Shown: piece after piece, positions 1 to 25,048 of the stretch
Position numbering within the stretch: the stretch's first letter is position 1
How the letters are laid out: each line of letters begins with the position of its first letter
Virus record (IMG/VR): IMGVR_UViG_3300025096_000006
Coordinates: 32,001-96,000 of that record
Length of the DNA stretch: 64,000 bases
Direction: 5' to 3' (one strand)
From: a virus
Notes under the pieces: model-generated
What the model was told of the DNA's origin: nothing
The model's database searches: none
What the model saw: only the letters and a program-made list of their open reading frames with translations
Translations under genes and position numbers: made by a program

Positions 1-1668
1 GCGACCATATGTTCTTGTATTACGGGAGCCAGGAGGCACTGCAAGCAATGCAGAATCTTCACCACCGCCCTCGTCACCGCCGGCGTCGGGAGCCGGCATT
101 TCTTCACCACCGCCGATGTCTCCTCCGAGGTCTCCTCCGAGGTCTCCTCCGAGATCACCACCAAGATCTCCTCCGAGATCATCGCCGCCTAAATCACCGC
201 CGGCGCCACCTTCCGCAGCTGCGGCTTCTGCAACTGCCTGAAGTGCCGCGTCATGCTTGCGATCATAGTACATCTCGCGCTGATTGCGCATAAATTCTTC
301 ATGAGACATTCCAAAGATATGTTCTGCGACCCAACGACGGGAGAAGAATCCTTCGGTTGCGCCACCAGCAATATCAAATTTAGACTTCCAATGTTCAATT
401 TCTTGAAGTTCAGCAATCTTTGATGGATTATTTAACGCCAACTTAAATGCCAGCAAATCATCGCCTCTAAATCCTAGCGTGTAAAGATGGATAACTCCAA
501 TTTTTGTAAGCTCAGCTACAACAACTCTTTGTAACCTTTGAATTGTTCTGGCGAACCTAAGATCTTTTTGTGCCAAGGTTGTTTTATCTTCTGCTGCTCC
601 TTCACCCATTGCAAGGTAAGCTTGAGGTATCTTTAATGCAGAAAATAATTTATCGCGAAGATATTTAATATCATCAATCTGTGTCGTGTTTTGCCCACCA
701 GCAAGATTGGTAATTTCCGTAGCAGAGCCAGGACGCACAGGAATAAAATAGTCTTCTTCGATAGACATTGGATTATATCGTAAATCAATTTGTCCGGTTG
801 ATGCGTCTACAACTTGATGTCTTTTAAGCTGTGAGACAATCTTTTGCATATATTGCTCGACTTCGTTTGGAGGTATAGCGCCAACATCGATTTTAAACAA
901 TCTTCTTTCAGAGGATCTAACAATCCTATATGCCATCATAGCGTCCTCCATTAAAACCAGCTGGCGCCAAATACGACGAGCAGGCTCAAGAATAGATGTG
1001 CCGTATGGAGCATACTTGTCATTGCCTAAAACACGAAAATGTGCAACTTGCCAATTTTCGAAAGTCATGCCGGCGCTGTTCCACTGATATTGGACGTAGT
1101 TAGGGTTGGTGGAATCTTGTCCCTCAAGCCTCTCAAGCTCAGAGGGAGGCAGCGCGATTACTGATTGTACGCCGTACTTTTCATCAATATCAAGATACAA
1201 AAAGAAGTCGCCATATTTAGACATCGTGCGACTCCAGCCAAAAAGATTGTACTGAACATTAAGAATGTTGTCAAAAAGGACCTCTAAAACTGCTCTAATC
1301 TCCTCATTAGGACATTTAACATTTAACATAGGGCTAAGACTTGAATGAGTTGTCATCTCGTCAGCGTAAATGTCTAACGTGGAGGCAATCTCGGGTGTAT
1401 ATTCCATCTGATCAAAATCAACATATCTTTCAACGCGCCTTTGATTGGCAATTGCATTTGTGGCAATTGTGTCCAAAGGATTGTAAAGTGCTTTTTTAAA
1501 CTGTTGACCTGAAGCTGATTTAAATCTAGTGCCAAATTTGTCTAAATGCTGTCTTCTGATCTTCCTTCCTGTCTGTGATCGATAATTAACTATTGGTCCG
1601 GAGAATAGTCTAGTTAATGCTTTGAATAAGCCTGATTGATCATTAGAAGGGTTTTTGTTTGGGGGCAT
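1..1668 (-). CDS. Portal protein, T4 gp20-like (3' end runs off the window)
   Basis: Not in the ORF track because no stop falls in the window. Manual translation from ATG at 1668 is open to position 1: MPPNKNPSNDQSGLFKALTRLFSGP...MEYTPEIASTLDIYADE...KYGDFFLYL...YGTSILEPARRIWRQLVLMEDAMMAYRIVRSSERRLFKIDVG...EEDYFIPVR...IDDIKYLRDKLFSALKIP. These are gp20-family motifs, and the gene lies directly downstream of the terminase. Confidence 0.92.
   Translation of the reverse strand, partial: MPPNKNPSNDQSGLFKALTRLFSGPIVNYRSQTGRKIRRQHLDKFGTRFKSASGQQFKKALYNPLDTIATNAIANQRRVERYVDFDQMEYTPEIASTLDIYADEMTTHSSLSPMLNVKCPNEEIRAVLEVLFDNILNVQYNLFGWSRTMSKYGDFFLYLDIDEKYGVQSVIALPPSELERLEGQDSTNPNYVQYQWNSAGMTFENWQVAHFRVLGNDKYAPYGTSILEPARRIWRQLVLMEDAMMAYRIVRSSERRLFKIDVGAIPPNEVEQYMQKIVSQLKRHQVVDASTGQIDLRYNPMSIEEDYFIPVRPGSATEITNLAGGQNTTQIDDIKYLRDKLFSALKIPQAYLAMGEGAAEDKTTLAQKDLRFARTIQRLQRVVVAELTKIGVIHLYTLGFRGDDLLAFKLALNNPSKIAELQEIEHWKSKFDIAGGATEGFFSRRWVAEHIFGMSHEEFMRNQREMYYDRKHDAALQAVAEAAAAEGGAGGDLGGDDLGGDLGGDLGGDLGGDLGGDIGGGEEMPAPDAGGDEGGGEDSALLAVPPGSRNTRTYGR
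110..200 (-). repeat. Imperfect 12-bp tandem repeat encoding (GGDL)n in the portal C-terminal tail
   Basis: tctcctccgagg-like units in tandem; translation GGDLGGDDLGGDLGGDLGGDLGGDLGGDIGG. Confidence 0.85.
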
Positions 1669-1676: not shown

Positions 1677-3263
1677 TCACTTTATAATCCATTTATATTG
1701 TTCATACATTTTTTCTGCTTCAGTCATTTTATCAAAAATTTCATTGGTTTTGTAGCCATGCTGTCCTTTGATTTGTGTATTAATTTTTGTTCTAGAAGTA
1801 TAAATCGCGCCAACAAAAGCCTTTTGATAATTTAAATCTCGCGCGTTTGCTTGCAGTGCTGTATCTCTTACCCAGCACGCGATGGCTAGCGCCATAATCA
1901 AATCATCATTGTAGCCTTTCATTGCTTGCGGTTTGCCGTTCCTCCAAATAAAAGTCTTCATCTCGCTCACAGTGCGAGAAGAATATATGGTAATTAGTTT
2001 GTTTCTGACAAACTCCTCTAATTTAGCGACGATGAGGGGGCGCGTCTTCATAGAGGTCGTGAAGCCGGGCACTGCAGAATTCATTACTTCGGCTTGATGT
2101 TGCTCAATATATTCGTGCGTAGATTTAATCGAATGATAAACATTGGGATATTGGTAATCATCAATGAGTTTAGTGAGAACAGAATATCCGATGTTATTGT
2201 TTTCCACCACAAGCATACAATTACCGAACTCTTTACCGACACTGTTTAACATATTTGCAAACATATCCAATGTTGGTTTTCCTTGATACTCTCCCACCAC
2301 TTCAAGCGTTTCAAGTTTAACGATATGAAATGTAGAAAAATCGGTGGCGTCTCCGCGGGACACATCTGCAACTAAAAGATAATTGCAAGTTGGATCAAAC
2401 TCTTCCCATATCCAAAAGTTTCTATCAAAGCCAGTTCGATATTTCGGATCGCGAATGGTCGATAACATCCACTCCATACATTCGGGATCAATCACAGTCT
2501 CGCCAGATGTATTGAAGTTGCACTCAAGCTCTTGCGCAATCTGGCGCTTAGACATATTCTTGGTTTCTTTCTTATACCATTCCTGATTCCGATCTGGATG
2601 AACATTCCACGGCAAGGTGGTCAAATGAAAGTTGTTTGCTCCTGATTCTGAATCATTGCATGTTTTATGAAACCAGTTACCAACGCCGTTTGGTGTTGAC
2701 AGTGCAATGCAACGCCCACCAGTTGATAGCGTGGGATACAAACCGGTCCAAAGCTCCTCTAATCCTTCAATGTGGGCGGCCTCATCAAGCACTAAAAGCG
2801 ACAGGGCTTCTGAACGACCAGCATCGCCAGAAGTAGATGCCGCTTTAATTGAAGAGCCATTAGAAAGCTCAAACGAGGTGCGATTGTCAACACTTATTTG
2901 TGCAATTCTCAGCCAATCAGGAACATTGCGCATGATGTGCTTAACTTTCTTAACCAAGTTTCCCGCTGTAGCAAACTTTGTTGCCATAACAAGAATGGAT
3001 TTATCGCGATGAAATAACATCATCCACACAATATAGCCTGCAGTAATAGTTGAAATACCTAGCTGGCGAGCTTTTAAAATAACATTAAAGCGGTAATCAT
3101 TAAAATCTTTGAGAAGCTCATCTTGGAAGTCAAAAGTGTTAAAAAGAATAAGCCCGTGCATCGGATGAGATATTCTTGCATAAGTGTTAAGGAAGTAGGA
3201 GGGATCTTTTCCACACTTAAGTATCTCTTTTACTCTTTGTTGTTTGTCTAATTGGTAACTCAT
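1677..3263 (-). CDS. terL: Terminase large subunit, T4 gp17-like
   Basis: KARQLGIST (Walker A region), LLVLDEAAH (Walker B), STPNG coupling motif, RNase H-like ADVSRG..DFS and DDLIMA; adjacent to portal. Confidence 0.95.
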   Translation of the reverse strand: MSYQLDKQQRVKEILKCGKDPSYFLNTYARISHPMHGLILFNTFDFQDELLKDFNDYRFNVILKARQLGISTITAGYIVWMMLFHRDKSILVMATKFATAGNLVKKVKHIMRNVPDWLRIAQISVDNRTSFELSNGSSIKAASTSGDAGRSEALSLLVLDEAAHIEGLEELWTGLYPTLSTGGRCIALSTPNGVGNWFHKTCNDSESGANNFHLTTLPWNVHPDRNQEWYKKETKNMSKRQIAQELECNFNTSGETVIDPECMEWMLSTIRDPKYRTGFDRNFWIWEEFDPTCNYLLVADVSRGDATDFSTFHIVKLETLEVVGEYQGKPTLDMFANMLNSVGKEFGNCMLVVENNNIGYSVLTKLIDDYQYPNVYHSIKSTHEYIEQHQAEVMNSAVPGFTTSMKTRPLIVAKLEEFVRNKLITIYSSRTVSEMKTFIWRNGKPQAMKGYNDDLIMALAIACWVRDTALQANARDLNYQKAFVGAIYTSRTKINTQIKGQHGYKTNEIFDKMTEAEKMYEQYKWIIK

Positions 3264-3272: not shown

Positions 3273-3686
3273 TTATTCAAACAGTTCTTCTAAAATTAGC
3301 CTATCATCTGAAGTGGGCAAGGACCAGTCATTTGTAAATCCGGTCCAGTCGATTTCGCATATATATTTTCTTTGACCCCGAAGAAGCGACTCTACCAATC
3401 TATGATACCCATCAACAACGAGAAACTTGTTTTCTTCTTTAATCCACACAACACTTAATGGTCGGTGGGATGATTTGCTTTTAATGCCTTCCGTAAAGTG
3501 ACGATAGGCTGCAAGGATTCCGTAATCAGAATTTCCTTTTTCTACAATCAAATCATTATAATGCAATTCGCAAACTTCAGGGATCTTATCAAAAAGATAT
3601 TTCTCAGATCTCTCTTCTGCCTGTTCTACAGTAAATCTAATTTCTTCTAAAATTAGCTGCCTTAACTTGGATTTAGTAAGGCGCAC
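3273..3686 (-). CDS. KEE-tagged protein with ParB/sulfiredoxin-like domain
   Basis: N-terminus MRLTKSKLRQLILEE; PLSVV...FLVVDGYHRL resembles the ParB-N/Srx DGxHR motif. Confidence 0.6.
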   Translation of the reverse strand: MRLTKSKLRQLILEEIRFTVEQAEERSEKYLFDKIPEVCELHYNDLIVEKGNSDYGILAAYRHFTEGIKSKSSHRPLSVVWIKEENKFLVVDGYHRLVESLLRGQRKYICEIDWTGFTNDWSLPTSDDRLILEELFE

Positions 3687-3689
3687 TTT

Positions 3690-4259
3690 TTAAGATTCCT
3701 TTTTGCGAGTATCGTTTTTTGGTCTCTTTCCTTTCCAGCCGCCTAATTCAACAAACTTTTTCCAAGCTGCTTCATGGCTAGCATGAACCGGATCTACATT
3801 TGCTTCGCCAACTAGTCCGACGCTATCTAATCCACCGATCTTATAGTGACACTTGGCTGTTACCCAGCTTCGAATTCTAGATGAGTTTTCAACCAAAACC
3901 TCTATTTCGCCTTCTTTTGTTAGGCTAACCGATTTACCGGTAATTCTACGATACTCTTTCTTTAAATAAGAAGCAATATCAGCAATTTTTTGCTCAATCT
4001 CGCCTTCAAAGCCGCTATCGTGCACCTCTTTAAGCTGCACTTCTGAATGATACTTAATACACATCATAGGTCCATAAAACGCAACCCCAAATCCATCTAG
4101 AACTCTTTTATCTAAGATAAGATCACCTTCTTCTCTCTTTAACCCAATCTCTAATAGTTCTCCATCTTCAGTATACGCGCCATCATATGCGTTGGCTGCA
4201 GCCTGAGCTAAACCACTTACGATATCTGAGACAGATGCTGCTTCTTGTTTTTTAGCCAT
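3690..4259 (-). CDS. Hypothetical phage protein
   Basis: 189-aa ORF tightly packed with neighbours (TAATG overlap with the upstream gene). Confidence 0.8.
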   Translation of the reverse strand: MAKKQEAASVSDIVSGLAQAAANAYDGAYTEDGELLEIGLKREEGDLILDKRVLDGFGVAFYGPMMCIKYHSEVQLKEVHDSGFEGEIEQKIADIASYLKKEYRRITGKSVSLTKEGEIEVLVENSSRIRSWVTAKCHYKIGGLDSVGLVGEANVDPVHASHEAAWKKFVELGGWKGKRPKNDTRKKES

Positions 4260-4648
4260 TATGACTCTTCTCCTTCATTTGGTCTCCATCCTTTTTGCCA
4301 TCTTTCTTCTCTGCCTTCGACAAATTGAATGTAACACTTATTGCAACAATCAAACTTGACTAAGCAAACATCATCCATAGAACTCTTTGGGAAGAACCCG
4401 CAGACAGGACAACATTTTAAAGATTCTCTATTAAGTAGTTTTTTTGAGATCTTAATACCATTAACATCTACTTTTTCTTGCCACTCGCCAATCTTGTTTT
4501 GTTTTTTGTAAAATTGTTTAGATTGCTTGAGATATTCTTTTTCCTTCGTCTCGTCCCAGTTTCCTTTAGGGTTTTGAACCGCTTCTTTGCCATACTTTTC
4601 TACAATAGCTTTTTCAATTGCTGCAATCTTGTTGAAATCTTTACTCAT
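4259..4648 (-). CDS. Hypothetical protein with C-terminal Cys cluster (CPVC...CCNKC, likely Zn-binding)
   Basis: Start reassigned to MSKDF at 4648, which overlaps the end of the upstream gene. Confidence 0.7.
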   Translation of the reverse strand: MSKDFNKIAAIEKAIVEKYGKEAVQNPKGNWDETKEKEYLKQSKQFYKKQNKIGEWQEKVDVNGIKISKKLLNRESLKCCPVCGFFPKSSMDDVCLVKFDCCNKCYIQFVEGREERWQKGWRPNEGEES

Positions 4649-5057
4649 CAAATGCCCTATATGCGCCATAAGTCGCAGCTGCGCCGGCGGCTATACCGCC
4701 AACAAACCACCACCACTTATTAGAAGGCGCTTGTTTCAACATTGCTTCTTGCAGGGCGACAATTTCAATGTCTTTCTGCTCGATCCGCAAATCATATTCT
4801 TTAGTAAGCGCGTCCAATCGAATCTGAAAATTTTGTCGCTCAAGCTGAAACTCAGTTGCCTGAACATCGATCCGATACTCTACTTCTAAATCGCAATCCA
4901 TCCGATATTCTTCAGGAAGCACCAATAATTCTGCGATACCACGCTTGTTAAACAAAACACCCTCAAAGGGTGCTGGCTCATTCTCTCCAAGAATGGCAAA
5001 TTGCGGAGGCTCACCAGCGTGAGCCACCATCGAAAATAATAGCGCTTTAAGGAACAT
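4641..5057 (-). CDS. Exported coiled-coil protein with C-terminal hydrophobic Gly-rich anchor (possible spanin partner)
   Basis: Signal-peptide-like MFLKALLFSMVAHA|G, heptad-rich middle, C-terminal WWWFVGGIAAGAAATYGAY. Confidence 0.45.
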   Translation of the reverse strand: MFLKALLFSMVAHAGEPPQFAILGENEPAPFEGVLFNKRGIAELLVLPEEYRMDCDLEVEYRIDVQATEFQLERQNFQIRLDALTKEYDLRIEQKDIEIVALQEAMLKQAPSNKWWWFVGGIAAGAAATYGAYRAFDE

Positions 5058-5460
5058 ACTGGAATCCGAATGTATCTGTTACTTGTTCTGCGAGTTCTTC
5101 TTTGTTTTCTGTGAACTGTCTGCGGTTGTCGATCGTTGTTTCAATTTCAACAATTCGTTCTTCAACCACCACTTCAATCTCATCTCTGTCTTGCTCATAT
5201 TGCCTCTCCAATAATTCTAGTGCATCACGATAGGTTTGCAATGCTTGTTCTTTTCTTTGTAATTCTTCTGCATGTATATCTTGTAAACCGTCGATCTGGT
5301 TCTGAAGAGACTGCTGGCTAGTTTGATAGGTGTTCTCAAGTTGTTTATAATCATAGCGCATTTTTCCAATAACTGTAAGCAAAAGAATAACAATTGTTAT
5401 TTCTTTCCAGTTTTTCTTTGCGACGTAAACAACTTTAAGCCAGTCAACTTTAATCATCAA
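5047..5460 (-). CDS. N-terminal TM plus coiled-coil protein (i-spanin/Rz-like)
   Basis: ITIVILLLTVIG hydrophobic helix followed by a long Q/E-rich coiled coil; follows a holin-like gene. Confidence 0.5.
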   Translation of the reverse strand: MMIKVDWLKVVYVAKKNWKEITIVILLLTVIGKMRYDYKQLENTYQTSQQSLQNQIDGLQDIHAEELQRKEQALQTYRDALELLERQYEQDRDEIEVVVEERIVEIETTIDNRRQFTENKEELAEQVTDTFGFQYVP

Positions 5461-5651
5461 ACACCTTTCATTCTAGCAATACCATCGATAACAGCTTGAC
5501 CGCCAATGTAGATTGCAGAGATCATAACCCAATCGCTGGATGCTAAATCATAAAATGCGAATAGACCTGTAGCTGTTAGCCAAACCATAAATTTACGAGA
5601 AATTGCTTTCTCAACTAATCTATCTAATTTTCCTTGTACATAAACCATCAT
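5457..5651 (-). CDS. Putative holin (two TM helices)
   Basis: Start reassigned to ATG-ATG at 5651 after AGGA RBS; SRKF motif followed by two hydrophobic segments; 64 aa. Confidence 0.55.
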   Translation of the reverse strand: MMVYVQGKLDRLVEKAISRKFMVWLTATGLFAFYDLASSDWVMISAIYIGGQAVIDGIARMKGV

Positions 5652-5668
5652 TTGTTTTTCCTTTCTTG

Positions 5669-5676
5669 TAAATAGT
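5669..5676 (-). promoter_or_regulatory. Candidate phage late promoter ACTATTTA
   Basis: Intergenic, 17 nt upstream of the holin ATG; the same 8-mer recurs in other rare intergenic gaps. Confidence 0.5.
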
Positions 5677-5704
5677 TTTTTATTTCTTCCTTGGATTTGG
5701 ATCT

Positions 5705-6805
5705 TCACGGATCCGTAAGCGGGAATCCGCCGCCTGTAGCAGCATATGCGGCTCGTCGCTCTTCTGGAGTTGGGTGGCGCGCGTTGCCGCCAGGACCGCC
5801 TAAGCCGCCGCCGGCGGGACGTGGACCGGCATCGTGTTGTTGAATATTGCCTGTAGTATTTAAATAATTGTAGAAGGCAGCTAGCGCATCCAATATTGTT
5901 TCTTCCTCGTCATTATCTGCCTGAATTGTTTCCATAGCGCTGCGAAGATCTCCTTTGTATTGGCGCCACATATTTTCCAGTTGTTTAATTTGACTAGTCG
6001 TGCGTCTCATTGGATTGGTAATTACGCCATCAACACCCGTCATAGCTTGCTGGCGCAACTCGGCGGGGTCAACATAGTCACCGGCTTCAAACTCTTTCAC
6101 AGTTTCCTTGGCATCCCATGCATCCTCGCGCGTCACAGTAGGATCGCCAGGATCAGCCTCAAGTTTTGCCATAATCTCACGGGCACGGTCGATACTCATG
6201 CCGCGGACTTCGTTTAAAAGTTCGGTACGCATATGTTGCTCAATTAGATAAAGATAATATTCTTCTTGAACAATGTTCTCAGCCACTTGCACATCTTCGG
6301 GATGAGGATCCATTTTTTTCAGCTGAATGGCCATGTTGATAATATCTTCTTGAGAATATCCAGCCTTCAACAAGGCTATTAACATTTTTTCAATTTCATA
6401 GCTCATGTCTCCAATCTGTGCGCGCATTGCCGCGATCTGCCTATCGGGAGCTAGACCTTCCGAAAATTCCCCGTGACCTTCATTAAGCATTTTATTAATT
6501 TCTTCCTTAATAATCTCGGTTAACTCAGCTAAGCTCTCTTTAAATCCCATCACGGGGCGATCGCCTTCGCCGCCTCCAGGCTGATACTCTGTGGGGAACT
6601 CTTCTTCTTCTGGCTCGGGGCTGGGCTCTGAGACATCAGCGTCATACATTTCATCATACACCGCGCCCATAATGTCGCCGGTCACATTTGGTGGAGTGCC
6701 CTGCAGTAGTGCAACAATAGTACGCTGGGCATCTTCGGCGCTCACCTCCTCTTTGATAACTTCCTCGGCTATAATCTCACGTAATCTTTTAAGGGTAATT
6801 TTCAT
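5705..6805 (-). CDS. KEE-tagged acidic protein (putative internal head/prohead cargo)
   Basis: MKITLKRLREIIAEEVIKEE at the N-terminus; internal ELTEIIKEE repeat and LNE sites. Confidence 0.6.
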   Translation of the reverse strand: MKITLKRLREIIAEEVIKEEVSAEDAQRTIVALLQGTPPNVTGDIMGAVYDEMYDADVSEPSPEPEEEEFPTEYQPGGGEGDRPVMGFKESLAELTEIIKEEINKMLNEGHGEFSEGLAPDRQIAAMRAQIGDMSYEIEKMLIALLKAGYSQEDIINMAIQLKKMDPHPEDVQVAENIVQEEYYLYLIEQHMRTELLNEVRGMSIDRAREIMAKLEADPGDPTVTREDAWDAKETVKEFEAGDYVDPAELRQQAMTGVDGVITNPMRRTTSQIKQLENMWRQYKGDLRSAMETIQADNDEEETILDALAAFYNYLNTTGNIQQHDAGPRPAGGGLGGPGGNARHPTPEERRAAYAATGGGFPLTDP

Positions 6806-6806
6806 C

Positions 6807-7037
6807 TTAGTATTTTGCCTGTATTAATTCTGCCACAATACTAGCTAATGCCTCTGGTCCCAAGCCAGAATCTCCAGTAAGGGCTTCAATCTGAGTTCTA
6901 ATATCCTTGGCTAAGGACTGGGCTGCAGCCGGAATTTCTTTTACAGCTTGCATAACTTTTTCGCCCTCTTCTTCTTCTTTAAGTGCCTTAAGTTCTTCTT
7001 TAATAATTTGTTTAAGCTGTGTTTTTGTTATTTTCAT
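6807..7037 (-). CDS. KEE-tagged small protein (76 aa)
   Basis: Start reassigned to ATG 7037 (TAATG overlap); MKITKTQLKQIIKEE. Confidence 0.75.
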   Translation of the reverse strand: MKITKTQLKQIIKEELKALKEEEEGEKVMQAVKEIPAAAQSLAKDIRTQIEALTGDSGLGPEALASIVAELIQAKY

Positions 7038-7267
7038 TATTTGCATCCTTCTGGTAAATGTGATTTTAGCGTCTCTTTGTAAGTATTTAGTGGCGGCTGT
7101 TCCCATTCAATATGTGGGCAATAATCTTTATGATCTTGTTTGTCTTGTAAGTATAGCTCTAATGCTAAAGCATCTCGCTCCATATCATTTAAATCTGATT
7201 TTAATTTATCTATATCAATCGGCAGCACAACAGCAGCAAATAAGATACCCGCAAGAATAACTTTCAT
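7037..7267 (-). CDS. Small membrane-anchored or exported protein
   Basis: Hydrophobic N-terminus MKVILAGILFAAVVLP; start/stop overlaps on both sides. Confidence 0.65.
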   Translation of the reverse strand: MKVILAGILFAAVVLPIDIDKLKSDLNDMERDALALELYLQDKQDHKDYCPHIEWEQPPLNTYKETLKSHLPEGCK

Positions 7268-7521
7268 TGTGTTACTAAGCCCTCAATTCTATCAAGTATA
7301 TCCCTGAGATGTGTAAGCTCGCTCTCGACTCTAATTAATGTTCTCGTTGCTTCTTCCTGTTCGTCAACCTGTTCCTCAAGTTCTGCTACCTGTCGCTCCA
7401 AGTCTCCCATATCATTTCTTAATTGAGATACTTCTACATTTACAGACCACACCCAGCCAGCAAGAGGCATAATAATTGCCCCTAATACAAGTGTAAATAT
7501 TTTCCACATATCTGGTTTCAT
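7264..7521 (-). CDS. Small single-TM coiled-coil protein
   Basis: IFTLVLGAIIMPLAGWVW helix plus heptad repeat; ATGA overlap with the tubulin gene. Confidence 0.7.
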   Translation of the reverse strand: MKPDMWKIFTLVLGAIIMPLAGWVWSVNVEVSQLRNDMGDLERQVAELEEQVDEQEEATRTLIRVESELTHLRDILDRIEGLVTQ

Positions 7522-8657
7522 GTCGCTAATCCATTCATACTTAGTATCGCAATCAATCCAGGCACATTCTTACGCACGTAAACACCAGAGAATAGTGTCT
7601 CGCATCTACCGCCGACATAAGCGATTGCTGACTCAATGTTTTTACTAACTCTTGGATCTGCCACCATTTCCTCAGACGCCACTAAGATTAGGGAGCCGGC
7701 TGCAGCTTTTCCTTTAGGTGGTGGGCAGGCAGACCTATTCATACAGTTGTGTAGGATCACCGATCCAAGCTTTCCAGTATTTGGATCTTTTATCATGGTT
7801 GAGCCGAGAAAAGCTCTCCCGTCGTTGCCCAAGCATGTTTCCAGATCTTTACTATCAAAAGATTGGATCGGTGAATCCTCGGTGGAGAGTTTTAGCACCT
7901 GGGCGAACGACTTAGCAAATTGTGTGTTGGCGACAGGATACATGCCGAGCATGCCGATCCTACCGCGAAGCAAGCGCGTTGCGCGCTCGTTATCTAGAAT
8001 GATGTGTGGGTGCTTGGCAACATCGTTTGCCAATGTCAGCGCATTTCTAGCGATTGTGGGGTTAAGGTTTTCCTGTGCTGTTGGCCAAGAGACAATATAT
8101 ACTACCTTTCCGGAAGACTGAACAGACTTCATATAACGTTCGAATACCGGGTGAAGTGCAGTCACAGAACTACCGGTTCCGCCGCCTCCGCCAGCAAGAA
8201 CAAACAGCCAGTCAACCTTTCCAAGTTTAATGCGCAATGCGTCTTCTACGATTGCACCGTTAGTAGAGAAAACCTCTTTACCGTAATCTACATTCTTCCC
8301 GATGCCGTCACTGTCGGGAATAAGAACAACGTGATCTTCTTCCACGTTCTTCGGGATGTCCTTGCCTGTGGAATTCACAAGCAGAGTCTTATTAAAGCCA
8401 AGCTCTAAGAAAGCATTAGCCATCTTGTTTCCGCCCCCACCAACACCAACAAAGCCTACGTTAATAGACGAAGGAGCAGTGTTTTCTGGAAGGAGATCTT
8501 CATCAGAGTATTCCATCTGTAGTCCGAAGTCCTCAACCATTCCAAAATCTTCTGCTGCGACTTCTTCGTGATAGCTGTCTTTCTCCTGATTAAAGGAGGG
8601 TGGTGGTTCTGCGGGAGGCAAAAAATCAAATTCATTATCGTTGTCTTTATTGCTCAT
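7518..8657 (-). CDS. Tubulin/FtsZ-family GTPase (PhuZ/TubZ-like)
   Basis: VGVGGGGNK (T1 loop), LAGGGGGTGSS (signature loop), ILDNE, FDSKDL (T7-like); acidic ~60-aa N-terminal extension. Confidence 0.92.
   Translation of the reverse strand: MSNKDNDNEFDFLPPAEPPPSFNQEKDSYHEEVAAEDFGMVEDFGLQMEYSDEDLLPENTAPSSINVGFVGVGGGGNKMANAFLELGFNKTLLVNSTGKDIPKNVEEDHVVLIPDSDGIGKNVDYGKEVFSTNGAIVEDALRIKLGKVDWLFVLAGGGGGTGSSVTALHPVFERYMKSVQSSGKVVYIVSWPTAQENLNPTIARNALTLANDVAKHPHIILDNERATRLLRGRIGMLGMYPVANTQFAKSFAQVLKLSTEDSPIQSFDSKDLETCLGNDGRAFLGSTMIKDPNTGKLGSVILHNCMNRSACPPPKGKAAAGSLILVASEEMVADPRVSKNIESAIAYVGGRCETLFSGVYVRKNVPGLIAILSMNGLAT
7520..7546. repeat. 27-bp exact direct repeat, copy 1 (3' end of tubulin gene)
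   Basis: atgtcgctaatccattcatacttagta, identical to 13299-13325. Confidence 0.9.
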
Positions 8658-9202
8658 TGTTGCTCCATTGCAAATTCTTCTTCGGCCTGTGCGAGAAGTC
8701 TATTTTGTCTTTCGTTGTTAGGAGATGCTGTCACTCTCACGCCGGGCATGCCTCTCATAATGCCTTTTACCATATCGATATATTCTCTATCAGGGTCTCT
8801 CTCGGCTTGTCGCTTCTCCCAAGCTTCTCTATCAACATCGCTCATTCCGCCTCCATAACTTTTCTTAGGCTTTTTTCGATACGGAGATGCAATCTCGGGT
8901 TCGCCTTGCGAATCAAAAACAGCGCCATAATCGTGACGACCATAGGACTCTTCAAGCTCTTCTTCAGAAGCAGGTGCACGCTTGAAAAGAGTAGCCAACT
9001 GATTAATCAGAGCAACTCCTGCGGTTCCAATGGTTGCCGCGAGCACTTCGGGCTGTCGAATAAAATGTTGTGCTGCATCGGCCACTAGCTGGAGATTTTC
9101 TGGCGTAACATTTTCAAGCCCTTCGTCCAACTCTCGTGACTCCATGGTCAATTCAAGCTCTTCTTTGATAATCTGTTTAAGTTGGGATTTTGTGATTTTC
9201 AT
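8654..9202 (-). CDS. KEE-tagged protein (182 aa)
   Basis: Start reassigned to ATG 9202 (ATGA overlap); MKITKSQLKQIIKEELE...ELDEG. Confidence 0.75.
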   Translation of the reverse strand: MKITKSQLKQIIKEELELTMESRELDEGLENVTPENLQLVADAAQHFIRQPEVLAATIGTAGVALINQLATLFKRAPASEEELEESYGRHDYGAVFDSQGEPEIASPYRKKPKKSYGGGMSDVDREAWEKRQAERDPDREYIDMVKGIMRGMPGVRVTASPNNERQNRLLAQAEEEFAMEQQ

Positions 9203-9441
9203 TTCTTCTTTTCGCAATAGCCTTTCAAACCTCTAGAGAGATCATAGCTTTTGGATTTGGAGCCTTTAGACTCTTTCGCGTATCTCCATTTTCCACCTTC
9301 GCTTTCGCATTTCTCTATCTTGCCTGGGTCATCTTGACCCGAGGCGCCACCAGCGGGCTGATCGTGTGGATCTGTTGCTTCCAGCACCGCTGCTAGTTCT
9401 TCCTTGATGATCTGTTTAAGGTGTGATTTTGTGACTTTCAT
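9199..9441 (-). CDS. KEE-tagged small protein (80 aa)
   Basis: MKVTKSHLKQIIKEELAAVLEA; TAATG overlap with the SbcCD fusion gene. Confidence 0.75.
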   Translation of the reverse strand: MKVTKSHLKQIIKEELAAVLEATDPHDQPAGGASGQDDPGKIEKCESEGGKWRYAKESKGSKSKSYDLSRGLKGYCEKKK

Positions 9442-12400
9442 TATTGGTTAACCCTTGCGTATCCGCGTTTTTTGTCTATAACAATTTGCATATCAACGCA
9501 GTCTTTGAGCGAATCAAGGTGAGAGATAAGCAAAACGTTCTTAAAATACACTTTAATTAGTTCCAAGATTCGAATAAAACCCTCCATATTTTCTTCGTCT
9601 AGTGCTGTTCCTGGCTCATCAAGAATGAATAAGTCACTCTTGGGTAACGAAGACACAGACAGAAGTGCCAACCTGATAGCCATCGCTGCCATTGTTTTTT
9701 CGGCGCCTGACGCCATTTCAATCGGGCGCTCATCATATTGCGGGTGCTTGATAAAAATGTCAAACTTGTTGCCAGAGCTTTCAAAGAAAATCTCAAACTC
9801 TACAATGTTAGCGAGCACCTTAGCAATCTCTTGATTGATTACTGGAATTTTCTTCTTGATAACATCGTAAGCGATTCCGTTAGGGTGCATGCACCGCATA
9901 AACAAGTCGTATGCCGCAAATGATGATCTAAGATCGTGGTATTCTTGCTTTTGCTCTCGCAGTGTTTCTACACGTTGTTCGTAGGATCCCACAAGTTTAA
10001 CAAGGTCGAGTGTCTCTTCTTCGCAAGATGTAATCTTCTTGTTCTTGCTCTTGATGCTTTTCTCCAGATCGCGCTGCTCTCCTAAGAGCTTCTCAAGGTT
10101 TTCGATAGCTTCCTTGTTGTCTTCATACTCGGTAATTTTTAATGAGATATCCTTAAGGGCTAGCTCGATTTTTGACCTCACGGTCTTATTGCGCTCGCGT
10201 TCTAAATCAAGCTGTGTTATTTCTGCTTCAAGCTTGGCAACCATGCCTGTTATACGCGTGTGTTCCATAAGCTGTGTAAACACATCCGATGGATTTAATG
10301 CTGCTAAATCAACCACCGTGTTCTGTAATTCATACTGAACCAGTTCTTTGCTGGCTACAGCTAAATTAGCCTCTCTAACAAACTTATTGTCAGAGCAAAA
10401 TTTGCAATCCGGATCGTATTCGTGATCATGAAGTAATGCTTCTTTTTTTGCAATTTCATTCAGCTCTTCATTAAGTTTCTTTTCTTTTTCGTTAAGCAGT
10501 TCGATCTCGCGTTGAAGCTTCATAAGTTTAGTGATATTTACGTGTTCAAGCTTGCCTCTACAATTTTTAAGCACACGCTTCTTTCTTTCAATTTCTTTTG
10601 ATTGCTCTTTGATCTGTTCCATAAGCGTTGCGGCTTTTTTAGTTTTGCCTTTCTGCTCTTCGCGAAGCTTGGCAATATCAATAAGTTCATTAGGAATTGC
10701 TGAGATTTGCGCATCTAGGGCACCGAGGGTATCCTGGAGCATAGTCAACTCTTCTCTAAGTTCAGCGCAGAAATACTTATTAGTCTTTACACTGTCTCGA
10801 TGATCTTCAAGTGTTTCTGTCGCAGCTTCGATCTCCTCGTTATAGTCTCTGTCTTCGTGTTTCTTTAGCATCACCTTCGCTTCAACAGAATCATCCTTTG
10901 CCATTCGAAACTTCTTCTCAAATACTTCAAGGTCCAAGAACTTAGCGATAATCTCCTTGCGCCTAGTTGAACCTTCATCAATAAACGCCAGGGCGCCGTG
11001 TTGTGAAGCCAGCGAAGAAACCATAAAATCGTCAATCGTTCCAAAGTGCTTGCGAATGTTTGCGTCTGTTTCGTTACGAGTTGTGCCATTCAGAGAAATT
11101 ATCTCATCAGTGATGTGATCGCGCTTCTCAAAATTTAAATCAGTCTTGGCTTCAAGTGTTTCAACACCCTTCAATCGCTTTGTATATTTTGTAGATTCTC
11201 GGCTAATTGTATACGTGGCATTGTTGGCTTCAATCGTAAGTCTTCCTCTTCCACTATCTCTATTCTGGTTAATGACATTGAGGTTCTTTCGTTCATTTTT
11301 TGAAGTTGTATTAAAAAGAGTATACAAAGCAGCATCGATAATAGAACTTTTGCCGCTGAAATTCTTTCCGAAAATGCCAACAATACCATTAAGCCTATCA
11401 AAATTGACAGCATTCTTTTCCCCATAATTAAAAAGATTATCGAACTCAAATGACTTTAGTCTCCAATTTACATTGCGCGCTATCTCTTCTTTCTCTTCGA
11501 TAATTTTGTTGTAAGTGCGATTAAGTTCATAAACTTTTTCCATAGTATCAGAAGGCGCCTGGAAGTCTTTAAGATACTCTGAAATGAGTTCCTCTTGGAT
11601 CTTTGGATCTCGCAAGTTCTCTGACTGCAGTCCGTTGGTAATATCCTCTACATTTCCGCGTTGACCGCTGGCACGATTCAGAAACGAAATGCTTTCTGGC
11701 TTGAAGCGGTGTTTGGCAATATCCATCGCTCTGCGCATTACATCGAGCGGTAAGTTGTTGTTACTCACAAGGCGAAGTCTTGCGCCAGTTGGCACGTCAA
11801 TCTTGCGAGGCATGCGCCCCTTTAACGTAAGCGGGATTGTGAAGAACGGCTTTGGATTCTTGAGCACAATCGGCTCAATATCCCAATCATCCTTTGATTT
11901 GATGTCCCATATAAGAATGCCCTTGTCGTTAGTCTCGCCGTGATTCTGCTGAACAGTTGAGCCTGCGTACCATACGCGACCCTCTTCGTCCAAGAACTGA
12001 CGCCTGTGAATATCACCAAGCATTGAGAAGTCGTGGTCATCAAAGATTGTGATCGTGTCTTCGCCGTTAACCATTGTCCAGCCAACATCAGTTTTGCAGT
12101 TGCTGATTGAGCCATGGTAAAGTGCGATGTTGATCTTGTCGGGATTGGTTGGCTTAATCCATTGCTCACGATCAAACACAGAAAGCACGTTCAAACAAAA
12201 CTTGTCATCCAAATGTGTTTCACCGGAGTCTTTTAGCAGATGCAGAGCTGGCAAGTTTAGCGCATCTACAATCGGCGTAAGCGCATCTTGGCGGCTGCTG
12301 TTTTTTAGATTGCCGTCATGGTTGCCCAAGATAATATATGTGGGCGCAATCGTCGCTAAGTTACGGAAGAAGTCAGAACACATCTCCACAAACTCTGGTG

Positions 12401-12557
12401 AGATTTGTGTTTTGGTGTGCGCGATGTCGCCGCAGTGAACAATGTAGTCGACTTCTTGTTCTCGTAATGTTTCGTATAATTGCTCAAAAACAATTCTATA
12501 CTCGTAATGATACTTCAAATTTTTGATATGAGTATCGCTTATGTGTGCAAACTTCAA
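9441..12557 (-). CDS. Fused Mre11/SbcD nuclease and Rad50/SbcC ATPase (T4 gp47+gp46 equivalent)
   Basis: Phosphoesterase motifs SDTH, GD, GNHD, YHG, GDIH; Walker A GKNFSGKS; coiled coil with CKFC Zn hook; ASGAE signature, FILDEP Walker B, ISH loop; TTG start after GGAGGG. Confidence 0.95.
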   Translation of the reverse strand: MKFAHISDTHIKNLKYHYEYRIVFEQLYETLREQEVDYIVHCGDIAHTKTQISPEFVEMCSDFFRNLATIAPTYIILGNHDGNLKNSSRQDALTPIVDALNLPALHLLKDSGETHLDDKFCLNVLSVFDREQWIKPTNPDKINIALYHGSISNCKTDVGWTMVNGEDTITIFDDHDFSMLGDIHRRQFLDEEGRVWYAGSTVQQNHGETNDKGILIWDIKSKDDWDIEPIVLKNPKPFFTIPLTLKGRMPRKIDVPTGARLRLVSNNNLPLDVMRRAMDIAKHRFKPESISFLNRASGQRGNVEDITNGLQSENLRDPKIQEELISEYLKDFQAPSDTMEKVYELNRTYNKIIEEKEEIARNVNWRLKSFEFDNLFNYGEKNAVNFDRLNGIVGIFGKNFSGKSSIIDAALYTLFNTTSKNERKNLNVINQNRDSGRGRLTIEANNATYTISRESTKYTKRLKGVETLEAKTDLNFEKRDHITDEIISLNGTTRNETDANIRKHFGTIDDFMVSSLASQHGALAFIDEGSTRRKEIIAKFLDLEVFEKKFRMAKDDSVEAKVMLKKHEDRDYNEEIEAATETLEDHRDSVKTNKYFCAELREELTMLQDTLGALDAQISAIPNELIDIAKLREEQKGKTKKAATLMEQIKEQSKEIERKKRVLKNCRGKLEHVNITKLMKLQREIELLNEKEKKLNEELNEIAKKEALLHDHEYDPDCKFCSDNKFVREANLAVASKELVQYELQNTVVDLAALNPSDVFTQLMEHTRITGMVAKLEAEITQLDLERERNKTVRSKIELALKDISLKITEYEDNKEAIENLEKLLGEQRDLEKSIKSKNKKITSCEEETLDLVKLVGSYEQRVETLREQKQEYHDLRSSFAAYDLFMRCMHPNGIAYDVIKKKIPVINQEIAKVLANIVEFEIFFESSGNKFDIFIKHPQYDERPIEMASGAEKTMAAMAIRLALLSVSSLPKSDLFILDEPGTALDEENMEGFIRILELIKVYFKNVLLISHLDSLKDCVDMQIVIDKKRGYARVNQ

Positions 12558-12590
12558 GTTCCCTCCAGACGTAGTTATGCCGTTAGTATT

Positions 12591-12619
12591 ATAATACCCT
12601 ATGCGGGATCTGTTGTCAA
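12591..12619 (-). promoter_or_regulatory. Sigma70-type promoter upstream of the Mre11-Rad50 gene
   Basis: Minus strand TTGACA-N17-TATTAT (-35 at 12619-12614, -10 at 12596-12591) in an intergenic gap. Confidence 0.75.
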
Positions 12620-12626
12620 GACTTTT

Positions 12627-12767
12627 TTATAGAAAGAGTGCCCCGATCGCTCCATAAAGCATCATTCCCATAACAAACGCGCCCATTCCAAGAATCCCCA
12701 ATATCTTTAAAAGCTCTAAATCGCTTATGCCTTTCTTAAAAAGATATCGTGAGAGTTTTCTTAACAT
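12627..12767 (-). CDS. Small single-TM membrane protein (46 aa, below the ORF-track cutoff)
   Basis: Manual translation MLRKLSRYLFKKGISDLELLKILGILGMGAFVMGMMLYGAIGALFL*; fills the gap directly after the upstream stop. Confidence 0.6.
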   Translation of the reverse strand: MLRKLSRYLFKKGISDLELLKILGILGMGAFVMGMMLYGAIGALFL

Positions 12768-12769
12768 TA

Positions 12770-13285
12770 TTATCTTCTTGACATACTCTTGCTATAGCCG
12801 CTACGGGCTGGTGCGCCTTCATATCCGCCGGCGCGTTGACCAGATGGGGCAAGATTCCCTATTGCGTCAATCACCAGGGCGACTTTCTTGTCTATCCATT
12901 TGGGAGCGGTGACCATTAGATTTCCAATAGTTTGAGTAATTGTGTTGGTGACTCCTTCAGCTTCGAGTGCATCACCTTTACTATCCCAGTAATCCTCAAT
13001 ATCTCCCATATTCATAGCTTGTTTCAGAGCATGTCCCATATTAGAATCCAGAAGCTCCGCAAAATCCGTTCCTTCTAAAGATGATGGTGTATAATTACCG
13101 TCTCTTATATCTGCCATATAGTGCTGAAGAAATTTCATACCATCTCCACCCATCTCAAAATTGGTCCGATCGTCTCCTCTTGGTTTTCCCACCATGGTGC
13201 GCATCGTATCCATAAAACCTTCGTCTAGGCTTTTTTCAATCTCTTCTTTGATGATCTGCTTAAGTTGTTTCTTTGTGATTTTCAC
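12770..13285 (-). CDS. KEE-tagged protein (171 aa)
   Basis: Start reassigned to GTG 13285 with AAGGA RBS; (M)KITKKQLKQIIKEEIEKSLDEG. Confidence 0.75.
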   Translation of the reverse strand: MKITKKQLKQIIKEEIEKSLDEGFMDTMRTMVGKPRGDDRTNFEMGGDGMKFLQHYMADIRDGNYTPSSLEGTDFAELLDSNMGHALKQAMNMGDIEDYWDSKGDALEAEGVTNTITQTIGNLMVTAPKWIDKKVALVIDAIGNLAPSGQRAGGYEGAPARSGYSKSMSRR

Positions 13286-13298
13286 TTCATTATTCCTT

Positions 13299-13325
13299 AT
13301 GTCGCTAATCCATTCATACTTAGTA
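13299..13325. repeat. 27-bp exact direct repeat, copy 2 (orphan copy of the tubulin 3' end)
   Basis: Identical to 7520-7546; occupies the spacer between two KEE-tagged genes. Confidence 0.9.
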
Positions 13326-13601
13326 CTCTTCTTCTTCTCGATACAGAAGGGGTCCCTGCGGACTAAGCATCGTATCCCAGAATTGAGCCACATCACCGCG
13401 GTCTCCCTTGGTGTTAATAGCGTCCACTATCATGTCATAAGCTTCTTTGCCTGAGAGCGCACCGGGGCCCATTGAATTCATGATCTCGCTGACTTCCTGC
13501 GCCATTTCCATAGCATCGCCACGTTCGCGGATGCTTTCAATGCTGTAGGCATCATACTCTTCCTTGATAATCTGTTTAAGTTGTGATTTTGTGATTTTCA
13601 T
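13320..13601 (-). CDS. KEE-tagged small protein (93 aa)
   Basis: MKITKSQLKQIIKEE; AGGAG RBS. Confidence 0.8.
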   Translation of the reverse strand: MKITKSQLKQIIKEEYDAYSIESIRERGDAMEMAQEVSEIMNSMGPGALSGKEAYDMIVDAINTKGDRGDVAQFWDTMLSPQGPLLYREEEEY

Positions 13602-15542: not shown

Positions 15543-17876
15543 CTATATGTCTAGTTTTAACTTAAATGTTAAATCTTGATCTTCTTTCTTGAGAATTGGG
15601 TTGGATAATGACGCAACACCAATTAAGTTCTTATTTTCATCATATATTCCAATTTTAGAAATATATACTTGCCTGTTAAAAGAAGCCGAATGCCCCTCAA
15701 AGCTAGAGCTAACAATATTTTTTATTCTTAATTTAGGATTTTCCTGATATATGACTGACGAAGTTAGCTGCAAGCGATCTTGACCATATTCTATAGAAGT
15801 AACATTATTAGAATAATTGGTTTCGCCGCGACGAGCATGCGCATGCATGGTCATAACCTGTGTCTCAGTTGTCCCTTCAAAAGATAAATCAAAGGACATA
15901 GATATGAATCTAGTGCCAGTGTTAGAGGTGCCTCCTCCTACTGTGCTTTGGGTTAGACCATCTTCTGCGCCGGCTCCAAAATATTTCCACTTTGGATAAT
16001 CCCACTCTTCAGTATCTTTAATTAATGGCATTGAACCGGTTGCTCCTAGCTGCCAATTGCCAGTCAATAGCAATATTCCTTCTTCATACAAAGCAACACC
16101 AGCCACACTACCGGAGCCCGTTTGAGCATCTGGTCCATCCATGGCTCCAGATACCTGAATAAGCTCTCCATTTTGTTTAAGATCTCTAAGTTCACCTATT
16201 AAAGTTCCAGTCACAAACATTTTTAATGAAAGCGATCCTGGTTTGATTTCCGAACCATAAAAGATAGACGGAATCATTATTGCATTAATTTGTTGGCGAT
16301 CCTTGTCCCAACCAACATCTGTCCCTCCATCTGCATATGCTGCTAAACTTGAACTAACTGCGTAATGCTCACTTCTTGTTCTATAAAGCTCCAATGAGTT
16401 TCGAAGCGCATGGTAGTGAGGGTGCACTGCGGTGCCTTTTGCGCACTCTACAGAAGTATCATCGCGGTATACCGTTTTGGCATCGTGAGCATCGCCATCG
16501 TCTTCATCGTGCGTTGGCAAGCGCTGTGCCGCATAATGTCCGCATTTTCCATCGGTAAAGGTAGAGCTTCCAGTCCAATATTCTCTGCTAATAGAAGCAG
16601 ACATAGGATAGTTTCCATAAAATATGGTACCATCTTCTATGGCGCGCCAGTTATCTAGTTGGCTACCAGTAAAAGCGCTTCTGAATATAGCTCTATCGCT
16701 GCTTTTTACTAGAAAAGGATAAATAAATTCATTTGTAGTTTCGGCGTTAGCATCGGTAGTAGTAGCACCGGCAAAGGCAGTAGCAGTAATCCCTCCATTA
16801 ACTCTTATATCCGATAAATTTCCATTTGTGATAGCTGCGATCGTAGTATTGCCTGCAATGCCAGGAGTGACTTGAGTAACAGTCAATGTATCATTTGTAG
16901 CGGTATGTGTGCTAAGTACGGCAGTCAATTTTCCGCTGTGCCCGGCAGAACCCTCAATGGCTTCCTTAAACTTAGTCGCAATCTCTCCTTGATCACTGCA
17001 TGCAGCAATATTAACGCGGATTGTTGTGCCGCTAACCACGGCACCATTTGCATAAGAGCCGCCATTTTGGAACGCATAAGTTCTTTCCGTTCCATCGCTA
17101 GAAGTTAGCGTAATTGAAGGAGGCGAGCCGTCATCAATACCACCAGAGCCGCCAACTGCATGATTTACAACTCTGATAGTGGCTGTGGAGCCTCCACCGG
17201 CGCCTTCAGCGGCTCCTCCAGTAAAAGCAGTAGCAGTAATGCCGGCATTTACCGTTATATCCGACGTATCACCGTTTGTCACAGCCGCAATTTCGGTGTT
17301 GCCAGCAATACCATCTGTTGCCTGAGTTAAGGTCATTGTATCATTTGTGGCAGTGACCGTACTTAAAACAACAGTAATCTTTCCATTATGCCCAGCGCTG
17401 CCTTCAATAGCTTCTTTAAATTTAGCTGCAATTTCTCCTTGATCGCTGCATGCAGCAATATTGACACGAATTGTTGTACCGCTAACCACGGCGCCATTTG
17501 CATAAGAACCACCATTCTGAAATGCATAGGTTCTCTCTGTTCCGTCACTAGAAGTTAGTACGATAGAGGGCGGCGAACCATCATCAATACCGCCGGATCC
17601 TCCGACTGCATGATTTACAATTTTAATTGTAGCTGTTGCGCCCCCTGCATCAATATTGGCAGCATGTCGAACATAGCCAGTTCCTTTATCTATATTGTAT
17701 TCATATAGACTAATATGTCCTGGACCTACATTTCTAACATTGTGACTAAAGGCGCCAGACTGTTCAGCTCTCTGGTTGTAGTAAACAGTTCCGTCATAAA
17801 TGAAAAACTCACTTTTTGGGTGAGCTTTCATTGTGTTAATCAGAAGATCGTTTTCTCCAAACTTTTTAATAGACAT
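15543..17876 (-). CDS. Virion structural (baseplate/tail-associated) protein with a duplicated inserted domain
   Basis: C-terminus YISKIGIYDENKNLIGVASLSNPILK..KLDI is paralogous to the 17892 gene; two ~142-aa internal repeats. Confidence 0.65.
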   Translation of the reverse strand: MSIKKFGENDLLINTMKAHPKSEFFIYDGTVYYNQRAEQSGAFSHNVRNVGPGHISLYEYNIDKGTGYVRHAANIDAGGATATIKIVNHAVGGSGGIDDGSPPSIVLTSSDGTERTYAFQNGGSYANGAVVSGTTIRVNIAACSDQGEIAAKFKEAIEGSAGHNGKITVVLSTVTATNDTMTLTQATDGIAGNTEIAAVTNGDTSDITVNAGITATAFTGGAAEGAGGGSTATIRVVNHAVGGSGGIDDGSPPSITLTSSDGTERTYAFQNGGSYANGAVVSGTTIRVNIAACSDQGEIATKFKEAIEGSAGHSGKLTAVLSTHTATNDTLTVTQVTPGIAGNTTIAAITNGNLSDIRVNGGITATAFAGATTTDANAETTNEFIYPFLVKSSDRAIFRSAFTGSQLDNWRAIEDGTIFYGNYPMSASISREYWTGSSTFTDGKCGHYAAQRLPTHDEDDGDAHDAKTVYRDDTSVECAKGTAVHPHYHALRNSLELYRTRSEHYAVSSSLAAYADGGTDVGWDKDRQQINAIMIPSIFYGSEIKPGSLSLKMFVTGTLIGELRDLKQNGELIQVSGAMDGPDAQTGSGSVAGVALYEEGILLLTGNWQLGATGSMPLIKDTEEWDYPKWKYFGAGAEDGLTQSTVGGGTSNTGTRFISMSFDLSFEGTTETQVMTMHAHARRGETNYSNNVTSIEYGQDRLQLTSSVIYQENPKLRIKNIVSSSFEGHSASFNRQVYISKIGIYDENKNLIGVASLSNPILKKEDQDLTFKLKLDI
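16764..17639 (-). repeat. Intragenic tandem duplication, 450-nt period (17214-17639 and 16764-17189)
   Basis: Both copies contain VNHAVGGSGGIDDGSPPSI.LTSSDGTERTYAFQNGGSYANGAVVSGTTIRVNIAACSDQGEIA, with many synonymous differences. Confidence 0.95.
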
Positions 17877-25036: not shown

Positions 25037-25048
25037 GCACATATGATT

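Follow-up and report, generated by a model that had tools for sequence, protein, structure and literature searches.

In bacteriophage T4, the internal proteins IPI, IPII and IPIII, together with Alt, carry a capsid-targeting sequence (CTS) that is removed by the prohead protease gp21 (PMC9026906; PMC3012670). The CTS reads MKTYQEFIAE (PMC8442874), and the first 10 residues of IPIII suffice for packaging, with targeting influenced by residues 4 and 7 and processing by residues 8 and 10 (PMC9026906). The protease cleaves by the rule L/I-X-E, Asp at P1 blocks processing, gp21 itself has LIE-9 near its N-terminus, and the T4 internal proteins are basic (PMC9026906). As summarized in one account, the internal proteins of T-even phages are highly diverse and the CTS alone is conserved (PMC3012670, citing Repoila 1994), a polymorphism that the same account interprets as an arms-race repertoire (PMC3012670). 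In the giant phages phiKZ, 201phi2-1 and SPN3US, long propeptides of ejection or inner-body proteins are cut after Glu by gp21-like proteases (PMC5694885). Here we describe a 15-residue N-terminal leader, the tag, on seven otherwise unrelated genes in a 64,000-nucleotide (nt) stretch of the IMG/VR virus record IMGVR_UViG_3300025096_000006, and we lean towards reading it as a T4-type capsid-targeting propeptide on hypervariable, mostly acidic cargo.

The source record is a linear contig of 108,230 bp, estimated to be 59% complete. The whole stretch that was analysed, called the window below, comprises contig bases 32001-96000. By its predicted gene content (the large terminase TerL, portal, gp21-type protease, scaffold and gp23-type capsid protein) the contig is T4-like.

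Results

A shared leader on seven unrelated genes

The original prediction held that at least seven genes of this region share an N-terminal tag, and seven minus-strand starts do indeed begin with a MK[IV]TKxQLKQIIKEE-like leader (Table 1). A six-frame fuzzy scan of the whole contig returned just these seven copies and one weaker, in-frame internal copy (LAELTEIIKEEINK, window about 6500-6541) within the 366-residue (aa) protein. As all seven N-terminal copies lie on start codons, they are not explicable by chance. Three of the starts are over-extended in a plain list of open reading frames (ORFs; 6807-7106, 8654-9217 and 12770-13396), as had been claimed. Two genes start with GTG; at the position of one of these, 13285, relatives have ATG behind the same upstream motif.

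The bodies downstream of the leader had been described as unrelated and mostly acidic, and both descriptions hold. The best pairwise E value among the seven (76-366 aa) was 0.24, which is not significant, and past residue 14 six of the seven have an isoelectric point (pI) of 4.05-5.03, the 80-aa body having a pI of 8.0. None of the seven had a family match in Pfam or PHROGs, and a search of the ESM Atlas returned unnamed viral clusters only. The body of gene 3 belongs to a five-member BLAST cluster of tagged proteins. An AlphaFold2 (AF2) model of gene 4 predicts a helix at residues 5-22 followed by a low-confidence linker at residues 23-29, with a mean predicted local distance difference test (pLDDT) score of 63; the model of gene 1 (pLDDT 37) was unusable. 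For gene 1, a profile search of Protein Data Bank sequences gave no match, and a ParB-like assignment of its DGYHR motif was dropped since its sole basis was a PHROG match at E 0.07.

The leader is widespread and is conserved as a peptide

Related loci were collected by scanning IMG/VR with a degenerate DNA pattern, which gave at least 117 loci (about 1 Mb). Tag copies in them were counted allowing up to four substitutions, and the counts for relatives given in this paper are among the loci listed. A start codon underlies 325 of 329 tag copies. The tagged proteins have a median length of 112 aa, and by BLAST their bodies form 193 clusters, 162 of which are singletons. Together with the pairwise comparison within the window (best E 0.24), this shows that the bodies are not one homologous domain family of which the tag is a part. 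Of 312 copies, 310 retain L8 and 310 retain E14, 302 have I12 and 300 have M1. Conservation exceeds 90% at each of K2, T4, K5, I11, I12 and E15, and positions 6, 10 and 13 are variable. About 40% of copies have a further L-x-E near residues 20-22. The leader has no hydrophobic run of the kind found in a Sec or Tat signal peptide; charged and hydrophobic residues alternate (K2, K5, K9, K13, E14, E15).

A homologue search with the 182-aa protein returned 63 metagenome proteins, nearly all with MKITKSQLKQIIKEEL or a close variant, mostly at the first residue. A profile of the first 30 residues, scanned against 1.84 billion representative proteins, gave 13,522 matches at E <= 0.001. A search of 185,579 bacterial and archaeal species, each represented by one genome, found no copy. 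In the literature, no paper naming the peptide string was found, and nothing on topic was found on capsid-targeting leaders in T4-like metagenomes. We propose that the lineage carrying the tag consists of abundant, uncultured marine T4-like myoviruses.

The seven copies in the window have different upstream DNA and use different synonymous codons. A set of 287 unique tagged genes from related contigs draws on every synonymous codon family, with all six Leu codons occurring at L8. When 146 tags with an identical peptide were compared in pairs, those from different loci had 5.1 silent differences over 13 codons. Thus the silent sites have diverged and the peptide has stayed fixed, which indicates selection on the peptide and not on the DNA or mRNA. 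Identical-peptide tags within one locus differ by 2.9 silent changes and are therefore more alike, so that local duplication or recombination also contributes.

A gp21-type protease and its probable cut-site motif

The contig encodes a gp21-type prohead protease that matches Peptidase_S77 (PF03420) at E 1.8e-31 and shares 34% identity with T4 gp21 in an alignment spanning the GELxHP and SSRGxGS blocks. The cut-site motif of T4 is present in head proteins of this lineage. The LRE|S of the capsid protein aligns with the T4 gp23 maturation site LTE|A, and the scaffold family starts with MSSLL[KQ]E|A, T4 gp22 starting with MLKEQLIAE|A. Four relatives likewise have LL[RQ]E conserved at the N-terminus of the protease. 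Because the sites in the capsid protein, the protease and the scaffold all keep L-x-E-type motifs, the T4 rule L/I-X-E probably holds in this lineage. The I12-x-E14 of the tag fits this rule, and the divergent window copies LILEE and IIAEE keep the motif.

Tags and tag-like starts also occur near the protease gene itself. In five contigs canonical tags lie 5-20 kb from it, and at locus L123 a gene with a variant of the tag (MIMQINKARLKEIILEEL) directly follows it, with a gene carrying the second leader described below upstream. A conserved 129-139-aa protein with a tag-like start is encoded after the protease gene in L122, L123, L124 and this contig, either adjoining it directly or past one inserted gene. 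Beside the protease gene of this contig, outside the window, are two more divergent tag-like starts, on a 762-aa protein (MDKKTLRRIIEEE) and a 135-aa protein (MKKSDLKELIKPLVKE). The 762-aa protein has tandem PGTSEQAPYEDEE and AETVKGGPGA repeats and one hydrophobic segment, and is not found at this position in three relatives.

A second leader and the portability of both

A second, unrelated leader, MxKLFENWRKHLNE, was found in relatives, where 28 of 29 copies lie on start codons; this contig has no copy. It sits on unrelated bodies (at loci that include L011, L012, L030, L047 and L121) and ends in [LIV, rarely T]-x-E at residues 12-14. The two unrelated leaders thus share the same length and the same [LIV]-x-E14 ending, which points to convergence. 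They are also interchangeable: one body, 43% identical over its full length, is found behind either leader, and one module (85% identical) stands directly after leader 1 or forms the C-terminal part of a leader-2 protein. In addition, the gene 1 homologues P0348 and P0349 have bodies 50-55% identical to that of gene 1, starting at about residue 18, and are leaderless. The leader is therefore portable, being swapped or absent on homologous bodies.

The C-terminal tail of the 366-aa protein, RPAGGGLGGPGG-x-AR-x-PTPEE, recurs on otherwise different tagged proteins (P0001, P0009, P0030, L097:3513-4019 and L108:3246-3701), and it looks like a second shuffled module.

Domains in longer tagged proteins

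A Pfam search of 149 long tagged proteins gave one YkuD and one FliG_C match. The former is a single case of a YkuD L,D-transpeptidase domain (IHGT...SGGCIRL) that stands behind a tag and lacks a signal peptide (L038:6258-7055, minus strand); such an enzyme, if its predicted identity is right, could reach peptidoglycan by ejection. Matches to S_100/EF-hand among the 150 top profile matches were weak, fall on the tag helix and were set aside as chance resemblance to an amphipathic helix.

Gene neighbourhood and the junction motif

All 89 genes of the contig are on one strand, and the features discussed here are collected in Table 1. The neighbours that had been named for the tagged genes, namely TerL, a tubulin/FtsZ-family protein, a fused Mre11-Rad50 and a primase, were all identified; the genes called a 'lysis trio' had no family match. 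TerL is 46% identical to TerL of Flavobacterium phage immuto and 32-33% identical to cyanomyovirus TerL. Past the window edge, in the order of transcription, the portal gene is followed by three small genes, the Peptidase_S77 protease, the 762-aa protein, the 135-aa protein, a bS21 homologue, giant fibre-like genes, an acidic scaffold-like protein (contig 16064-17194) and the gp23-type capsid protein. Within 5 kb of tags, TerL is found in 71 of 117 loci and portal in 56 of 117, and the head protease was the sole conserved enzyme seen next to tags in the 117 loci listed. In 29 related loci a tubulin-like gene is found no more than 5 kb from tags. The phage-encoded bS21 gene stands in the head module, two genes past the protease gene, a position kept in three relatives, and the giant fibre-like genes form an insertion that separates the protease block from the scaffold-capsid genes.

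Table 1. Positions of the tagged genes and of other features of the contig. Numbers refer to the window unless marked 'contig'; minus-strand genes start at the higher number.
Feature	Position	Strand	Remarks
Tagged gene 1	3273-3686	-	137 aa; GTG start; divergent leader MRLTKSKLRQLILEE, tag codons 3642-3686; DGYHR motif in body
Tagged gene 2	5705-6805	-	366 aa; leader MKITLKRLREIIAEE (6761-6805); internal LAELTEIIKEEINK; C-terminal RPAGGGLGGPGG..PTPEE tail (5705-5830)
Tagged gene 3	6807-7037	-	76 aa; leader MKITKTQLKQIIKEE (6993-7037)
Tagged gene 4	8654-9202	-	182 aa; leader MKITKSQLKQIIKEE (9158-9202), then two shuffled body modules
Tagged gene 5	9199-9441	-	80 aa; leader MKVTKSHLKQIIKEE (9397-9441); start overlaps Mre11-Rad50 stop
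Tagged gene 6	12770-13285	-	171 aa; GTG start; leader (M)KITKKQLKQIIKEE (13241-13285)
Tagged gene 7	13320-13601	-	93 aa; leader MKITKSQLKQIIKEE (13557-13601)
Junction motif	13299-13324	-	ACTAAGTATGAATGGATTAGCGACAT, 26 nt; contains gene 7 stop; 18 nt before gene 6 start
Junction motif, second copy	7520-7545	-	encodes last codons of tubulin-like gene (..ILSMNGLAT*); abuts start of 85-aa membrane protein
Portal (gp20-like)	1-1668	-	gene cut by window edge
Large terminase, T4 gp17-type (TerL)	1677-3263	-	directly downstream of tagged gene 1
Tubulin/FtsZ-family GTPase	7518-8657	-	Pfam E 2.8e-7, just below curated cut-off
Mre11-Rad50 fusion	9441-12557	-	single 1038-aa protein, Metallophos plus SMC_N
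gp21-type prohead protease	contig 29467-29919		downstream of portal; 2 kb outside window
762-aa protein	contig 27092-29380 (L003:9092-11380)	-	directly after protease gene; tag-like start MDKKTLRRIIEEE
bS21 homologue	contig 26431-26673 (L003:8431-8673)	-	ribosomal protein; Pfam E 4e-9
Giant fibre-like proteins	contig 17269-25931	-	outside window; two repetitive proteins, ~1570 and ~1190 aa, with repeated AGTAAHVGIQWDADG modules

The junction motif, a 26-nt element with the consensus ACTAAGYATGAATGGATTAGCRACAT, occurs 70 times in loci L009-L121, each time with a gene start 3-25 nt downstream. The genes behind it include tagged genes, leader-2 genes, members of the MA(R/I)RKNxKxIDPRYF and MNWLLKLWNWLVSKF families, and tubulin. 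It holds the stop codon (TAA) of the upstream gene and a 6-codon mini-ORF (MNGLAT) whose own stop overlaps the next ATG; about half of its copies form the 3′ end of a tubulin gene. Neither a strong hairpin nor an evident sigma-70 or T4 late promoter consensus is present in the motif, which may serve as a promoter, a junction between cassettes or an element of translational coupling.

Discussion

The tag described here is a peptide under selection that stands strictly at the N-terminus, is portable between bodies, and occurs in a genome that has a gp21-type protease gene and an L-x-E site in its capsid protein. Docking, cleavage, packaging, ejection and any role against host defences are our inference. 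In the mechanism that we favour, residues 2-13 would form an amphipathic helix (with K2, T4, K5, L8, I11 and I12 invariant or nearly so) that docks the new protein onto the scaffolding core during prohead assembly. A gp21-type serine protease would then cut after E14 (P3 = I12, P1 = E14), freeing the variable body inside the head, where it would either stay with the DNA and be ejected into the next host or be expelled like the scaffold fragments. The cargo genes are short, hypervariable and mostly acidic cassettes. The plastic region that holds them adjoins the upstream side of the terminase-portal-protease block, and when cassettes are exchanged between phages the leader, and often the 26-nt junction motif too, moves with them. 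An anti-defence or takeover role for the cargo itself is speculation on our part.

The analogy with T4 was the core of the original prediction, and each sequence-level consequence of it that could be tested was found; the acidic cargo departs from the analogy, as the T4 internal proteins are basic. Several results weigh against a capsid-targeting propeptide. The median pI of the cargo is 4.9, and 80% of the proteins are below pI 6, compared with 54% of background ORFs. Conservation also covers E15 and a hydrophobic residue at position 16, and the predicted helix ends near residue 22, so that the conserved unit extends past the proposed cut. A gp21-like protease does co-occur with the tag, in 8 of 10 large tag-bearing contigs (each 50-79% complete), but this adds little and is phylogenetically trivial because it is expected of all T4-like phages. 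A T4-type late promoter (TATAAATA) stands before none of 283 tagged genes and is not placed before starts in this contig, and several tagged genes share an operon with replication genes (Mre11-Rad50 and primase) or overlap or adjoin them. Searches of the deposited phage collection with tblastn and blastn gave no real match, so that no cultured phage there carries the tag. Proteins with more than one tag also count here, 63 of 165 internal tag copies being without Met. The best-scoring profile matches (P0191-P0340) have 2-4 in-frame tags about 144 residues apart, and the 366-aa protein of the window is a mild example. Such proteins could be polyproteins cut into units or, equally, could carry a repeated docking helix. 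To our knowledge, the T4 CTS has been shown to work only at the N-terminus.

If the bodies are exposed to a protease that cuts at L/I-x-E, they are expected to avoid this motif. A comparison between tagged and untagged sets gave a raw depletion of [LI]-x-E with an odds ratio (OR) of 0.64 (p 9e-10), although unrelated residue pairs deviated equally strongly. With one protein kept per BLAST cluster, the depletion was gone (OR 0.87, p 0.2), a further point on the negative side, and the raw value had thus been inflated by redundancy. We also used a contrast within proteins, in which the preference for Glu over Asp two residues after L/I is set against the same preference at one, three and four residues. 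In non-redundant tagged bodies this gave an OR of 0.76 (confidence interval, CI, 0.64-0.89) and in untagged small proteins 1.02 (CI 0.84-1.23), the ratio being 0.74 (P = 0.009). Avoidance of [LI]-x-E is thus in the predicted direction and recalls the block that Asp at P1 puts on processing in T4; from a contrast that was chosen post hoc, it lends weak support to such exposure.

The main alternative is that the leader is a helix through which the protein docks onto, or oligomerises with, a cytoplasmic partner, such as a host hub, the tubulin-like filament or the replisome. Variable effectors would thus be gathered at a single site in the infected cell, and neither capsid loading nor cleavage would occur. 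The amphipathic helix and flexible linker of the AF2 model would suit this role, as would conservation past E14 to E15 and L16, the internal tag copies in long proteins, bodies so much more acidic than the T4 internal proteins, and the position of tags beside tubulin-like, Mre11-Rad50 and primase genes, the gene after tubulin often being tagged. What a cytoplasmic partner leaves unexplained is the [LIV]-x-E at exactly residue 14 in two unrelated leaders, the near-universal position at the extreme N-terminus and the tag-like starts on head-module proteins beside the protease gene; furthermore, the tag is in no cellular genome searched, and so is not a borrowed host interaction motif. We consider this alternative unlikely. 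Control of expression or turnover, with the leader enhancing the start of translation or serving as an N-terminal signal for degradation or timing, seems to us improbable. An A-rich run of first codons (AAA ATH ACA AAA), a bS21 gene in the phage itself, and the start of many tagged genes 3 nt past the junction motif, with the mini-ORF overlapping the start, would all fit, but silent sites vary freely around a fixed peptide, and 15 residues with an invariant Glu and an exact protease motif exceed what an enhancer needs. Nor does the leader match any degron class known to us.

A purely DNA-level explanation, in which the conserved 45 nt and the junction motif are mainly a recombination anchor and the peptide is functionless, could draw on the greater likeness of silent sites within loci (2.9 against 5.1 differences), on the 26-nt motif before many cassettes and on the shuffling of body modules and leaders. 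It is nevertheless very improbable, given that between loci nearly every silent site has diverged around an identical peptide, that L8 is encoded by all six Leu codons, and that an anchor needs neither an exact ATG start nor a kept reading frame. Recombination clearly helps to spread the cassettes, but it is more probably a side effect or an aid than the cause of the conservation. There remains the recognition sequence for a modifying enzyme, as in ribosomally synthesized and post-translationally modified peptides. One leader on thousands of unrelated small proteins does resemble a pattern of one maturase with many precursors. We give this next to no credence, since a radical-SAM enzyme (PF04055) was not found in this contig and was present in one of five large tag-bearing contigs (all incomplete), the head protease being the only conserved enzyme seen beside the tags in the 117 loci listed.

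Capsid targeting could be taken further, to a programmable delivery system in which one of two interchangeable 14-residue labels loads more than 13,000 mostly acidic families of unknown fold, including multi-tag polyproteins, into the capsid. This bolder version is tentative, and we would sooner expect it to fail than to hold. If it were true, this would be by far the largest known repertoire of injected phage effectors, possibly rich in DNA mimics or other anti-defence proteins. If capsid targeting as such holds, a curiosity of three T4 proteins would become a general and massively expanded strategy of ocean phages. Thousands of proteins of unknown function would become candidates for delivery with the DNA at the onset of infection, which is where anti-defence and takeover functions are expected, and there would be a second, sequence-distinct address label usable for loading proteins into capsids. 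The conserved tag is also a simple handle for mining cargo in metagenomes and viral-particle proteomes. Should our reading prove wrong, the extreme conservation of a 15-mer at the head of about 13,500 families would still call for explanation.

Comparison with known systems

T4-type phages have mobile promoter/stem-loop regulatory cassettes. The junction motif resembles these in being a short conserved non-coding element before small accessory genes that could mediate their shuffling, but its sequence is another one, and it overlaps the upstream stop and a 6-codon mini-ORF. The giant phages (PMC5694885) share with this lineage a gp21-family protease with Glu at P1 and paralogous head proteins with identical N-terminal 15-mers, and their propeptides carry multiple cut sites, like the second L-x-E near residues 20-22 here. 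In contrast, their motif is S/A/G-x-E, the propeptides are usually longer than 100 residues, and the proteins have been seen in virions by mass spectrometry.

The polymorphic internal-protein loci of T-even phages, as outlined in PMC3012670, are closer, in that members of a lineage carry different small genes sharing the leader alone. Here, however, the cassettes are interspersed with packaging, tubulin and replication genes along 10 kb, and the 26-nt motif stands before many of them. Closest of all in design is the T4 CTS: both are short, portable N-terminal peptides on unrelated proteins, end in L/I-x-E and occur in genomes with a gp21-type protease, and in both the cargo genes are accessory and hypervariable between related phages. 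By eye the tag and the CTS share just the M-K start and the hydrophobic-x-E end, so that the tag is an analogue and not a homologue. The propeptide would be 14 residues long instead of 10, and the cargo is mostly acidic instead of basic. The tag differs further in its multi-tag proteins, its second interchangeable leader and its junction motif, and its scale is three to four orders of magnitude larger, with about 13,500 cargo families where T4 has a handful.

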